Assembly: GCA_003153125.1 (NCBI GenBank)
Contig: PLWW01000018.1
Coordinates: 2,723 to 66,722, forward strand
Direction of reading: 5' to 3'
Origin: Candidatus Dormiibacterota bacterium
GTDB taxonomy: Bacteria; Chloroflexota; Dormibacteria; Aeolococcales; Aeolococcaceae
DNA length: 64,000 nt
Part shown: positions 47,468-62,353 of the stretch, piece after piece
How the letters are laid out: each line of letters begins with the position of its first letter
Numbering within the stretch: the first letter of the stretch is position 1
Program-made: the position numbers and the translations under genes
Notes under the pieces: generated by a model
The model's database searches: none
Seen by the model: the letters and a program-made list of their open reading frames with translations, nothing else
What the model was told of the DNA's origin: nothing

Positions 47468-49800
47468 TCAGAGCCCATTCACGCTGTACGCGTGCAGGTT
47501 TCCTGTCGTGTCGCCGATGTACACCACCCCGTGGGCGATGGACGCTGCCCCCCAGAAGGCGCCGCCAGAATCGTTGAAAGAGACGACCCCTGTGGCCGAG
47601 TTGACCACGGTGACGGTGCCGGCATGGCCCACGACCGCGAGGCCCGGGTCGGTGGTGACGGCGCCGATGACCGTGCCGCTGGTGAAGCCGTCCTCCCAGA
47701 GTGGCGATGACAGGTTGTTGGGGTCGAAGGCGCGCAGTGCGCCTGTGTACGCGGTGCCATTGATGGTGGTGTTGCCGCCGGCCACGTAGAGCGTGTTTCC
47801 ATCCCACGAGCTGGGCGAGATGCTCTGCCCCTTGAAAGCGTTTGGAAGGCCGGTCGAGATGCGGATGCGCTGGACTGGGCCCGCGCCGATGTTGTTTTGA
47901 TCGAAGACGTAGTACAGACCGTTCTTGTTGACGGCGCCCACGAGGGAAGTCATCGTGCCACCCGGGATGACTGTCCCGCTGAAGAACGTCGGGGTTGAGC
48001 CGAAATCACTGTCGGGGACCTGTTCCGCCGCGGGAATCTGCCAGTGGCTCTGCAGGGTGAGAGTTGGGCTAAACCTGAGGATTGCCGGCGAATACTGTAC
48101 GGTGGCGCCGCATTTCCCTCCCGGGTTGCCGGTGACCACATAGATGTTGCCCGCCGCATCGGCCGACGCTGATCCCCAGACGCTGCCGCCAAGGCAACCG
48201 CTCGGCACCGTGGCAAAGGAGTGCAGCACAGCGCCCGTCCCGGCGGCCAGCTGCACGACCTTGCCCTGCACCAAAGGACAGTCGCCCTGCGATGACACGC
48301 CCACATACAGGCTGCCGTTGGCGTACAGGGGCGAGCTCCACGTGTAGTGTGACGGCGCAGATCCCAGCGACGTGCGCCACAGAACGGCCCCCGTCAGGGC
48401 GTTGAGCGCCAGCACCTGCGCCGTTGCACCTGACACCACCGCGCCCGATTGGGCGATGTCGCCGCCGCCGCCGACAAACATAACCGGCTGGGTCACGCCC
48501 CCGATGGCAACGTTGGCCACCACGGCCGCCGACGTCACTCCCTGGATGATGCTGTTCTGGGAACCGCCGCATCCACTGTTGCGCCCGAGATACGTCTGCC
48601 ACACCACCTGCCCTGTCGTGTACGTGGTCGAGCCTACGGTGCACGACGAGGCGCACAGCGCGAACTCGCCGCCGTTCCACGAGCCAACGTAGACGAGCGT
48701 CGAGCCGCCCACGGTGGCGACGATCGGCTGGGAAAAGATCGTGTTGGAGCAGGTGTCCTTCGTGTTGGGGCAGATCGCTCCGTTGGTCAGCGCCACGGGC
48801 CAGCCCGTCTCTGGTTGCAATGAGCCGGCGTTCGATGGGTCGATCAGCGTCTCGCTGGTGAACCCGCTGCCTGACGCGTCATGCATGTACTCGGGCCAGT
48901 CCATGCCGGCGGGCGGCGGAGTCGGGGTCGTCGTCGGAGTCGCCGTGGGCGTCGTCGTGGGGGTAGTGGTCGGTGTCGTCGTCGGTGTCGTCGTCGCTGT
49001 CGTGGTCGGCGTGGGCGTCGGTGACGTGGTGGTCTCGAAGGTGGCGATCGCCCCCGTCCACGCCACCGCAGCACTGAGCGTCGCGGCATAGCTCTGCGGA
49101 CCGGCCGCGCTGAGCAGCTGCCAGGCTGCTTGCTCGCCGGCCTGATCGCCGCTGACCTTGGCCTGCTCGATGCCGGTGATCGTGTAACCCGCGCTCTGGC
49201 CACCGGGTGTTACGCCGCTGTTCCATCCGATATCGGCGATGGCGATCTCGCTGGGCTGGGCCGTGGCCGCGGTGGTCCCCGTGGAGGGCGCCGTCCCGCT
49301 GCCTCCGGCGGTGGCGATCACGTCGAGGGTCGTCGTCGCGTTGCCCGTGACTTCGAGGATGGTGACCGCGATCGCCGACGTCGACGCCGCGGTCCCACCC
49401 ACCGTCACGGTCACGGATTGAGACGTAGAGAGGCTGGCGGCGGTGGCCGCGTACCAGATCTCTCCATCGGCCTGTCCCTGGGCGACATTCGCGGCGCGGA
49501 CCCAATGGTTCGATGCCGTGTCTGTGACGGAGGCGACGGAGGCAGTGGCGGTGACGTTGCGACTTCTGACCGTGGCCACGAGGAGGTCGCCGGCCGTGGT
49601 GGCGGCCGGTGGCCGCGCCGACAACGTGGCGCTGGCCGTGGAGTTTGCCGCACCAAACGATTGCACGACGCCGAGGCCCGCACTTGCCGTCACCGTGTGC
49701 CAGACCGGCGTCATCACGGCGAGGACGACGATCAGCGCCAGGACGGGAAATGCCGCCCGCTGGACTGGACCGCGCCGCCACCTGAGATGATTCTTGCGCA
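47468..49800 (-). CDS. Secreted protein: shared N-terminal about 220-aa domain, a TP linker and a PQQ-like beta-propeller
   Basis: Start MRKNHLRWRRGPVQRAAFPVLALIVVLAVM (signal). The N-terminal domain is paralogous to those of the 50110, 55864 and 59984 proteins (VVQSFGAANST...EIWYAATAASL...EIAIADIGWNSG). The TPTTTP linker is at about 48900-49020. The C-terminal half has repeated ...LYVG../..GAVLW.. PQQ-repeat-like blades. Confidence 0.7.
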
Positions 49801-59983: not shown

Positions 59984-62353
59984 TCAGAAGCCGGTCTTGA
60001 TGTCCCCAAAGGTCGCGCTGGAGGAGTTGCCAAGGAGTCCGATGCCGTACTTCTCCTCAATGCCGCGGAGCGTGGCGTACTCATCACCGCTCGACGTGTA
60101 CGCGCCCTTGGGGGTACCGTCGATGATCAGGGTGGCCACGTGACCGCCGTTGCCGAAGACCCCGCCGGACGTGTCGGTGGAGACGCTCTCGTCCCAAGTC
60201 AGAATGATGATGCCGCCGCTCTTGTACCAATTCGTGGCCTGCACTCCGGGGATGAAGGTACTCAGCCAGGTGTCACCGTTGGCGACGCCGTTGGCGCCGC
60301 ATGGACTGCCGTTGGTGTGCATGTCGTCGCAGACGTTGGGACTGAACCATATGTACCCTGGTGGAGAGGCACTGTTCAGGTCCGTCTGCATCTGTGAGCC
60401 CGTGAAGGGCCCGTTGTACGGCACGACCCCATCACCAAGCTTGTCGCACAAGGAGGTGTAGTCGCTGAAGTAGGCGAACGGGTTGTGGTCACTGCTGTAC
60501 AGGGTGGTCGGCAGACCTTGGTAGCAGTTGCTCGGCATCGACTCCATGTACGCCTTCCACCTGATGTTGGCGGCATTCAGCTCGTCCGCAATCGTTGGGG
60601 CGGTGAAGGGTCGCGTGCCGCCGTGGCCGAGGTTCTGGTCGAATCCGGCGATGGCGTCCAGGTAGTCATTGGGGCTACCGTGGACGACACCGAACCACTT
60701 GGTCGCCGACGTGTACTTCTTGATCAGCGTGTTGTTGATGTATGGCGCATTGGCGCTGCCGACGATGTACGCTTTGCCGTCGGCGCTGCTGTACGCCTTG
60801 TTCTCCATCATGATGACCATGACGTGCGGCGCTGCAGCGGTCACCGTCACGGTGAACGACGTTGACGACGTGGCGGTGCCTCCTGGCGCTGTGACCGTGA
60901 TCACACCGGTCGTGGCCGTGGCCGGCACGGTCGTGCCGATCTGCGTATCCGAGGTCACCGTGAAGGTTGCCGCGATACCGTGGAACTTCACCGATGTTGC
61001 GCCCGTGAATCCCGACCCGGAGATGGTGACCGGCGTGCCGACCGGCCCGTTGGTGGGGCTGAAGCTGGTGATCACCGTCGGTGGTGGCCCCGTCGTCACG
61101 GTGAACGACGTCGATGACGGAGGGCTGATGCCCCCCGCTGTGGTGACACTGATCGGGCCGGTGCTGGTCCCGCTCGGCACCGTTGCCGTGACCTTTGCAT
61201 CGGAGACGAACGCAAAGGTGGTGGCGGCCACGCCGCTGGTGAAGGTCACGCCGGTGAGACCGGTGAACCCTGAGCCATTGATCGTCACCGACGTCCCAAC
61301 CGGCCCGCTCGACGGGCTGAAGGTGGTGATCGAGGGGAGCACTGTGAATGACGTGGTCGAGCTCCCGGTGGCGCCCAGCGCACCGGTGACGGTGATCGGG
61401 CCTTTGGTGGCCCCGGTCGGCACCGTTGTGGTGATCTGGACATCGCTGTTCACTGTGAAGGCGGGTTGGTTGGTGCCGTTGAACTTCACCGCGGTTGCGC
61501 CGGTGAAGCCGGAGCCGTTGATCATCACGGCCGCACCGTCGACGCCGCTACTCGGGCTGAAGCTGGTGATAACCGGCGGCGGTCCGGACGAGCCAACCCT
61601 GAAGGTGGCAATGGCACCAGTCCAGGCCACCGAGCTGCTCAGAGTGGCAGCATAGGTCTGAGTTCCGGTCGAGCTGACGATTTGCCACGCCGTCTGCTCG
61701 CCGGTGGCGGCGCCACTGGCCGTGGACTGCCGAACCGTGGTGGTGGAATAACCTGAGGTCTGGCCGCTGGGCGTTGCGGTCCCATTCCAGCCGATGCCGC
61801 CGATCACAATCTCATTGGCCTGCGAGGTTGCCGCAGTCGTGCCTGTCGACGGAGCCGTGCTGCTCCCGGCCAGCGTTGCGCTCCTGTCCAGCGGCGACGA
61901 CGACGCACCGGTGACATCCAGCACGGTGAACGCAAGCGCAGAGGTCCCGCTCACGCTCACCGTGACACTGCTCACGCTGGTCGCGGCCTGCGCGTACCAG
62001 ATCTCGCCGTCCGCCTGCGCCCCCTCGGTGACGGCAGCCGCCTTCACCCACACGTTACCCGCCGAGTCCGCAACGCCGGTGATCGTCGCGAGCGCGGTGG
62101 TGTCGCGTACCTTGATTGACGCGATGAGGAGGTCGCCGCCTCCCGTGACGGGGCTCGGGGTAGCGGCAAGCGAGGTTCCGGCTGTCGTATTGGCGGCGCC
62201 GAACGCTTGGGCCACCCCCGGCGACGAGCCCAGGGCAGTGACGCGGCCCATGGTGACGGCGGCGGCCAGCACCACCAGAATCAGACCGCCGATCTTCACC
62301 GCCGTCCGGGCGCGCCCAGACCTCTGGCGTCGCCTCCGATGCCGTCGTCCCAC
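59984..62353 (-). CDS. Secreted multi-domain protein (paralog E): shared N-domain, 5 IPT/TIG repeats and a C-terminal phosphoesterase-like domain
   Basis: The probable GTG start gives VGRRHRRRRQRSGRARTAVKIGGLILVVLAAAVTM (signal). The part of the track ORF upstream of it (to 62944) is likely not translated. The IPT repeats are ITSFSPSSGVDGAAVMINGSGFTGA... The C-terminal motifs are HVMVIMMENKAYS...PNVCDDMHTNG...IILTWDES. Confidence 0.7.
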   Translation of the reverse strand: MGRRHRRRRQRSGRARTAVKIGGLILVVLAAAVTMGRVTALGSSPGVAQAFGAANTTAGTSLAATPSPVTGGGDLLIASIKVRDTTALATITGVADSAGNVWVKAAAVTEGAQADGEIWYAQAATSVSSVTVSVSGTSALAFTVLDVTGASSSPLDRSATLAGSSTAPSTGTTAATSQANEIVIGGIGWNGTATPSGQTSGYSTTTVRQSTASGAATGEQTAWQIVSSTGTQTYAATLSSSVAWTGAIATFRVGSSGPPPVITSFSPSSGVDGAAVMINGSGFTGATAVKFNGTNQPAFTVNSDVQITTTVPTGATKGPITVTGALGATGSSTTSFTVLPSITTFSPSSGPVGTSVTINGSGFTGLTGVTFTSGVAATTFAFVSDAKVTATVPSGTSTGPISVTTAGGISPPSSTSFTVTTGPPPTVITSFSPTNGPVGTPVTISGSGFTGATSVKFHGIAATFTVTSDTQIGTTVPATATTGVITVTAPGGTATSSTSFTVTVTAAAPHVMVIMMENKAYSSADGKAYIVGSANAPYINNTLIKKYTSATKWFGVVHGSPNDYLDAIAGFDQNLGHGGTRPFTAPTIADELNAANIRWKAYMESMPSNCYQGLPTTLYSSDHNPFAYFSDYTSLCDKLGDGVVPYNGPFTGSQMQTDLNSASPPGYIWFSPNVCDDMHTNGSPCGANGVANGDTWLSTFIPGVQATNWYKSGGIIILTWDESVSTDTSGGVFGNGGHVATLIIDGTPKGAYTSSGDEYATLRGIEEKYGIGLLGNSSSATFGDIKTGF

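Follow-up and report, generated by a model that had tools for sequence, protein, structure and literature searches.

The stretch of DNA analyzed here (64,000 nucleotides of contig PLWW01000018.1, from a Candidatus Dormiibacterota genome; hereafter the window) contains four genes, A to D, whose products each carry the same domain of 211-221 amino acids (aa) directly behind a putative signal peptide. This domain is a large family so far undescribed in curated databases, with relatives in several bacterial phyla and in tailed phages, and its members are now labelled solely after the other domains that they contain.

Four genes with a shared N-terminal domain

Gene A (47468-49801, reverse strand) encodes a 777-aa protein in which a signal-like N-terminus and the domain are followed by a 40-residue Pro/Thr linker and a BamB/PQQ_2-like beta-propeller. 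The product of gene B (50203-55827, forward strand; about 1874 aa) runs from signal and domain through three TIG domains, a PF04185 phosphoesterase domain and ten CarboxypepD_reg repeats to a LamG/Cip1-like C-terminus, and that of gene C (55864-59949, forward strand; 1361 aa) joins signal and domain, again through a Pro/Thr linker of 40 residues, to a PF04185 domain, five CarboxypepD_reg repeats and an unannotated C-terminal module of 349 aa. In gene D (59984-62353, reverse strand; 789 aa) the order is signal, domain, three TIG domains and PF04185, such that TIG domains take in B and D the place that the linker takes in A and C. An earlier note on the window, made from the sequence alone, had delimited genes C and D as given here; start-codon analysis moves its upper limit of gene A (49800, one base out of frame) to 49801, and leaves its start of gene B (50110) as one of three that are possible, together with 50203 and 50251.

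The domain itself lies at 49028-49678 in gene A (reverse strand; 217 aa, profile E 2.8e-80), 50347-51009 in gene B (forward strand; 221 aa, 2.9e-76), 56008-56649 in gene C (forward strand; 214 aa, 5.2e-83) and 61592-62224 in gene D (reverse strand; 211 aa, 1.6e-85). When all six frames of the window are scanned with the domain profile, these four copies (E 1e-76 to 1e-85) are the only matches below E 0.1. The earlier note had described one domain behind the signal peptide of all four proteins, and its consensus string agrees with our four-way alignment. Pairwise similarity, the loss of which it had named as a possible refutation, persists under BLASTP with composition-based statistics, at 51-64% identity over 201-221 aa and E-values from 1.8e-60 to 2.9e-73. 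The window sequences have a biased composition, high in A, T, S and G, and the genome has a GC content of 67% (64-73%), but the composition-corrected E-values and the 75 invariant columns of the four-way alignment (72% mean column identity), which include aromatic and charged residues (W, Y, F, D and E), exclude a compositional artefact. Each copy in the window is, moreover, 62-70% identical to a copy in another Dormibacterota genome, as opposed to 51-64% to its paralogs in the window. Relatives elsewhere being closer than most local paralogs, the latter must be old and maintained, a history that is consistent with maintained, and possibly diverged, specificities.

At the start of each of the four proteins, a hydrophobic stretch of 17 residues (mean Kyte-Doolittle hydropathy 1.85-2.54) comes after 5-9 basic residues, and an AxA-like site lies 3-10 residues ahead of the first strand of the domain. 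From these N-terminal features we infer secretion via a signal peptide; with its first strand only a few residues past the AxA-like site, the mature protein would have the domain as its first folded unit.

The earlier note's division of the payloads into phosphoesterase-like proteins and a PQQ beta-propeller stands for the phosphoesterases, with proteins B, C and D passing PF04185 at 72.8, 52.6 and 57.5 bits against a Pfam gathering cut-off of 23. The propeller calls for a different name. The C-terminal 480 aa of protein A pass PF13360 PQQ_2, a BamB-like family (33.3 bits against a cut-off of 27.6, E 5e-8), and miss PF01011 PQQ (25.4 against 26.7 bits), so that the payload is best called a BamB/PQQ-like propeller, a name that does not imply use of the cofactor. 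Full-length protein A matches no Pfam family at E≤0.01, although its C-terminal 480 aa alone pass PQQ_2. The 40-residue Pro/Thr linker probably triggers the bias filter of HMMER, and domains of proteins with such linkers can be missed in whole-protein scans.

Two C-terminal regions merit separate mention. The last 175 aa of protein B (55300-55827, forward strand) give sub-threshold matches to Cip1-like, polysaccharide-lyase and laminin-G families (best 22.8 bits against 27), and probably form a concanavalin-like terminal domain. The last 349 aa or so of protein C (58900-59949, forward strand) have no Pfam match and constitute a second unannotated shared module, being 49% identical to the N-terminal region (43484-44464, reverse strand) of the PF04185 protein encoded at 42533-44557. 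The same module adjoins domain-bearing genes in four other Dormibacterota loci (L010, L011, L015 and L019), with 53-56% identity.

A large family missing from curated databases

The earlier note did not recognize the domain as a known family, and none of our searches supplies one. In Pfam-A and NCBIfam, the four excised copies yield between zero and two noise matches, all under cut-off, and in full proteins A-D the domain region is covered by no model of either database, including those for carbohydrate-binding modules (CBMs), lectins, SLH domains and domains of unknown function (DUFs). Among 53 full-length and 23 divergent domain-only family members, no curated family covers the domain or recurs. 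In PHROGs the only match is phrog_26064, a family of unknown function and without functional category, hit by two of 21 members; 10 divergent members and the stand-alone phage copies match nothing there. Sequence-profile searches of the PDB with three alignments return noise only, and Foldseek searches of the PDB with two independent structural models give no significant match (TM≤0.3, against thresholds of E≤1e-3 and TM≥0.5). A match to a well-characterized CBM or SLH-type family, which the earlier note had named as another possible refutation, was thus not found, and a literature search on Dormibacterota envelope and phosphatases turned up nothing relevant.

Absence from databases does not reflect rarity. 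An exhaustive HMMER search of 1.84 billion cluster representatives retrieves 15,469 at E≤1e-3, 4,832 at E≤1e-10 and 228 at E≤1e-30; an earlier word-indexed search had returned 48 matches only, pointing to a small Dormibacterota family. The domain is consequently not special to the four proteins of the window, and a family of more than 15,000 sequence clusters that has no place in Pfam, NCBIfam, PHROGs or the PDB is a real annotation gap. The family spans several phyla, its named members belonging to Steroidobacteraceae and other Pseudomonadota, to Mycobacteriales and to Dormibacterota metagenome-assembled genomes (MAGs). In species-representative genomes, close relatives are confined to MAGs of Candidatus Dormibacterota, one of them labelled Saccharimonadales.

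The position of the domain is equally broad. Among the best 150 family members and the earlier matches, 110 complete copies are N-terminal, 87 internal and 58 C-terminal; 40 proteins carry two copies, 14 carry three, four carry four and two carry seven, and tandem arrays of 2-7 copies occur, as in P0053 and P0054. Some Dormibacterota proteins have one copy at each end, and in close Dormibacterota homologs the domain is C-terminal, behind CarboxypepD_reg repeats. The fixed position from which the earlier note had derived a common role is therefore a property of the window and not of the family. Its suggestion to search for other payloads was fruitful, with Metallophos/purple acid phosphatase, fn3, He_PIG, CarboxypepD_reg and propellers found as partners, in addition to TIG, PF04185 and the immunoglobulin-like (Ig-like) domain of phage Tip attachment protein J. 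These partners are typical of extracellular proteins. Taken together, the Pro/Thr linkers or TIG domains next to the domain and its presence on only three of the six PF04185 paralogs of the window indicate the behavior of an accessory module.

Many apparently stand-alone homologs of 250-350 aa (such as P0001, P0012, P0023 and P0039) have garbled, Arg/His-rich C-termini, and in locus L023 the PF04185 genes are broken into fragments. Both look like frameshifted gene calls in assemblies, and short members from such sources are thus no evidence of real architecture.

The earlier note had also proposed structure prediction on the excised domain. An AlphaFold2 model of copy A, based on a 21-sequence alignment, is all-beta with about 15 strands and has high confidence (predicted local distance difference test, pLDDT, 94.5; predicted TM-score, pTM, 0.92), and the same strand pattern appears in a model of a divergent phage member, P0215 (pLDDT 86.5), built from a different alignment. 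In copy A the domain divides into an N-terminal half (49343-49678, reverse strand; domain residues 1-112), which holds a first beta unit of about 105 residues, and a C-terminal half (49028-49342, reverse strand; residues 113-217) with a second. The two halves align by hhalign with a score of 20.9 over 91 columns; shuffling the columns 120 times gives 7.9 ± 1.2 (maximum 12.0), and a reversed control reaches 12.5 over 29 columns. This in-register alignment, together with the parallel strand patterns of the halves in the model, identifies the domain as a tandem duplication of a beta element of about 105 residues.

Conservation was computed across copies less than 35% identical to copy A. Five positions are near-invariant among these divergent copies, namely G30 (96%), E109 (93%), G112 (92%), D119 (95%) and an acidic residue, E or D, at position 144 (92%), and D53, G134, W207 and F214 are kept in 74-83%. 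In the repeat alignment, N/D31 and E/D144 are equivalent. We take the acidic residues among the near-invariant positions as the probable site of ligand or Ca2+ binding.

Even though the PDB offers no match, predicted viral structures do. In BFVD, Foldseek retrieves 46 phage matches at E≤1e-3 (top query TM-scores, TMq, of 0.86, 0.81 and 0.80), comprising uncharacterized Caudovirales proteins and minor tail proteins of mycobacteriophages Hawkeye, PP, Tweety, Gaia and TChen and of a Gordonia phage. The likeness in predicted fold to Caudovirales and actinobacteriophage minor tail proteins (A0A6J5RXD4; Hawkeye X2KSL9, PP A0A2Z5XVD2, Tweety A5YJY9/gp21, Gaia, TChen) extends across about 215 residues with Foldseek E-values of 7e-10 to 1e-3 and TM of 0.57-0.86; with TM≥0.5 and a Foldseek probability of about 1 over the full domain, these are to be regarded as the same fold. 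The resemblance has its bounds, in that the phage proteins are presumed virion parts compared via predicted structures, while the window proteins would be cellular secreted enzymes.

Relatives at the level of sequence are present in phage genomes as well. Seven IMG/VR contigs encode them (profile E 1e-26 to 1e-47), in genes at tail-fibre or tail-tip positions. In L004 (7935-12302, forward strand) the domain forms the N-terminus of a 1455-aa protein encoded directly behind the tape measure gene, and L002 (7608-10109, forward strand) has the same architecture, both proteins combining the domain with phrog_5313, of unknown function. Two tandem N-terminal copies are found in L007; in L003 a head-decoration-like gene and the major head gene flank a 287-aa copy; and P0215, a copy of 234 aa that stands alone, lies between tail-fibre/collar genes of a 75-kb contig (L022). 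Searches of 50,697 GenBank phage records by tblastn, with the domain and a phage-like member as queries, gave no match. We also observe that the L004 protein matches phrog_24476, annotated as a phosphodiesterase (E 3e-28), a combination that echoes the pairing of domain and phosphoesterase in the bacterial locus.

Surroundings of the domain genes

The last 22 kb of the window (42545-63728) contain six PF04185 paralogs, three of which carry the domain. Their PF04185 regions lie at 51808-52611 (forward strand, gene B), 56791-57633 (forward strand, gene C) and 59987-60817 (reverse strand, gene D); at 42545-43297 (reverse strand) in gene 42533-44557, which lacks the domain and whose N-terminal region corresponds to the C-terminal module of protein C; at 45868-46665 (reverse strand) in gene 45865-47085, also without the domain; and at 62925-63728 (forward strand) in a gene that runs on towards the end of the window and is absent from the list of open reading frames. 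With their BamB/PQQ-like propeller, the six paralogs look like a secreted phosphorus-scavenging island. The same gene set, combining PF04185 with a giant protein of CarboxypepD_reg repeats and a PQQ-like propeller, is met again in other Dormibacterota islands such as L023 and L025, and two loci of Ca. Aeolococcus gillhamiae (L009 and L017) are syntenic with the window, with 71% identity for the propeller protein, 62% for a phosphoesterase and 80% for a sulfotransferase.

Directly upstream of the domain island lies a Wzx/Wzy-type polysaccharide cluster with sulfotransferases (30065-45842). It includes genes for a Wzz-like protein (32491-33585), a double sulfotransferase (33536-35566), a MurJ-like flippase (35554-37212), Wzy_C (37334-38833) and two GT4 glycosyltransferases (38851-40095 and 40092-41234), as well as a further sulfotransferase gene (44904-45842, reverse strand) that sits between phosphoesterase genes and finds its matches of about 80% identity in L009 and L017 by tblastn. 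The presence of sulfotransferases suggests that the product is a sulfated polysaccharide. At the head of the cluster, a 521-aa open reading frame (30065-31630, forward strand) ends in CarboxypepD_reg, the type of repeat that fills proteins B and C.

Binding, assembly or catalysis

The modular behavior of the domain, its tandem arrays, its extracellular partners and its place in phage tail genes lead us to favor, with somewhat better than even confidence, a reading of it as a non-catalytic binding module, adhesin or CBM-like, for an extracellular or cell-surface polymer. Tandem arrays are typical of binding modules, which gain avidity from them, and unusual for catalytic domains. A targeting, anchoring or substrate-recognition role had already been proposed in the earlier note; we infer binding activity, ligand nature and the part played by the acidic residues from tandem arrays, extracellular partners, phage tail genes and residue conservation, and the role, which remains the best-supported reading, now draws on these and no longer on fixed position.

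Under the binding reading, two tandem beta units of about 105 residues would make up an independently folding extracellular module. Tailed phages would carry it in their tail-fibre and tail-tip proteins, for adhesion, and several bacterial phyla would carry it in multi-domain proteins that are secreted. At this Dormibacterota locus, a signal peptide would direct export, with the domain as the part of the mature protein that folds first in sequence order, and the domain would then keep the rest of the protein, either a PF04185 phosphoesterase and its Ig-like spacers or a BamB/PQQ-like propeller, attached to a polymer outside the cell. The likeliest target would be a cell-surface or matrix glycopolymer, belonging either to the cell's own envelope, for retention, or to a substrate-bearing surface, for targeting.

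Several known systems resemble such a module in part. CBMs and lectin-like beta-sandwich modules are likewise all-beta, of about 100-200 aa, separated by linkers, terminal or in tandem and joined to varied catalytic partners, and they also occur in phage adhesion devices (PMC13252515). A cryo-EM (cryo-electron microscopy) study finds CBM-like beta domains, likely engaging host cell-wall glycans, in exposed baseplate accessory proteins of mycobacteriophages, and those of phage Douge have been reported to interact with host surface glycans (PMC13252515). Nonetheless, no CBM or lectin family of Pfam matches the domain in sequence, and among solved structures Foldseek pairs it with neither CBMs nor concanavalin-like folds (best TM 0.3). 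With SLH, LysM and other wall anchors it shares the place beside the signal peptide and a possible function in retaining exoproteins at the envelope; unlike them, proteins A-D match no anchor model, and the short helical repeat of SLH contrasts with an all-beta domain. A build from duplicated beta units is also found in bicupins (vicilin, BacB), the tandem collagen-binding domains of ColG (PDB 5IKU) and XepA (PDB 6I56), which are the top non-significant Foldseek matches of our second model (E 8e-3 or worse, TM≤0.29, root-mean-square deviation above 11 Å); we see no evidence in these model comparisons for homology to the domain.

Certain observations weigh against binding. The domain is matched by no Pfam CBM, lectin or SLH model, and no characterized relative of it was found. 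Tweety gp21 is undetected by hhalign or by a hidden Markov model (HMM) built from 232 copies, which makes the link to the named mycobacteriophage minor tail proteins one of fold only. Three further loci with homologs (L023, L024 and L025) lack polysaccharide genes within ±10 kb of the homolog, so that adjacency to a polysaccharide cluster in the window counts as weak evidence. Finally, conservation of E109, D119 and E/D144 at 92-95% in very divergent copies would also fit a catalytic site.

This last point is the core of the case for an enzyme, for instance a glycan or phosphodiester depolymerase of a new family with E109, D119 and E/D144 as catalytic residues, which phages would use to cut through surface polymers and bacteria would deploy alongside phosphoesterases. 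Depolymerases are frequent in phage tail proteins, and L004 pairs the domain with a PHROG region annotated as phosphodiesterase. Up to seven tandem copies, and copies at both ends of a single enzyme, would however be unusual for a catalytic domain. By Foldseek, the domain resembles none of the beta-jelly-roll hydrolases and lyases of the PDB, the size and the all-beta, two-repeat build suit a binding module better, and each of the four window proteins has a further candidate functional domain in any case. Catalysis by the domain accordingly strikes us as distinctly unlikely.

A structural or assembly role that needs no specific small ligand, be it as a spacer or as a unit of oligomerization or of a lattice (surface layer, sheath, baseplate ring), would account for stand-alone phage copies among structural genes, once beside head-decoration-like and major head genes (L003), and mycobacteriophage accessory proteins of similar size form rings (PMC13252515). 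The giant repeat proteins B and C, in addition, weakly resemble an anammox S-layer glycoprotein, via their CarboxypepD_reg repeats. The attachment of the module to soluble-type enzymes, at either terminus, fits poorly with this role, and conserved exposed-type polar residues at strand ends suggest a ligand site; we deem an assembly role unlikely, while granting it some weight. A compositional or low-complexity artefact, or a recent local duplication without wider meaning, has practically no probability left. The biased composition and high GC content that would invite the former are answered by the corrected BLASTP E-values, the invariant columns, the confident structure prediction and the thousands of homologs in other phyla and phages, and the latter by orthologs elsewhere that are closer than most paralogs in the window; on these grounds we rejected both.

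A more specific version of the binding reading can be put forward tentatively, and we would on balance doubt it as a whole: that the domain founds a new family of glycopolymer-binding modules with a duplicated, two-lobed fold and a conserved acidic ligand or Ca2+ site, exchanged between tailed phages, where it would be a receptor-binding element, and several bacterial phyla, and that in Dormibacterota it docks secreted phosphoesterases and a propeller on phosphate-rich or sulfated cell-surface polymers, their own or their neighbors'. If this were true, the locus would be a surface-tethered phosphorus-scavenging island.

The functional pattern outlined here is a familiar one, accessory beta modules being common to secreted enzymes and phage adhesion devices; what is new is the domain family. 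Solving its structure would be likely to yield a new beta-fold entry, and should the domain turn out to be an ordinary lectin-like sandwich missed by Foldseek, its value would fall to that of a new DUF or CBM family entry. Given that the module is common to phage tail proteins and bacterial secreted enzymes, the identity of its ligand would inform both fields: how environmental and actinobacterial phages recognize their hosts, and how uncultured soil phyla, Dormibacterota among them, retain exoenzymes (in this case a battery of six phosphoesterases) on the cell surface or on the substrates of these enzymes.

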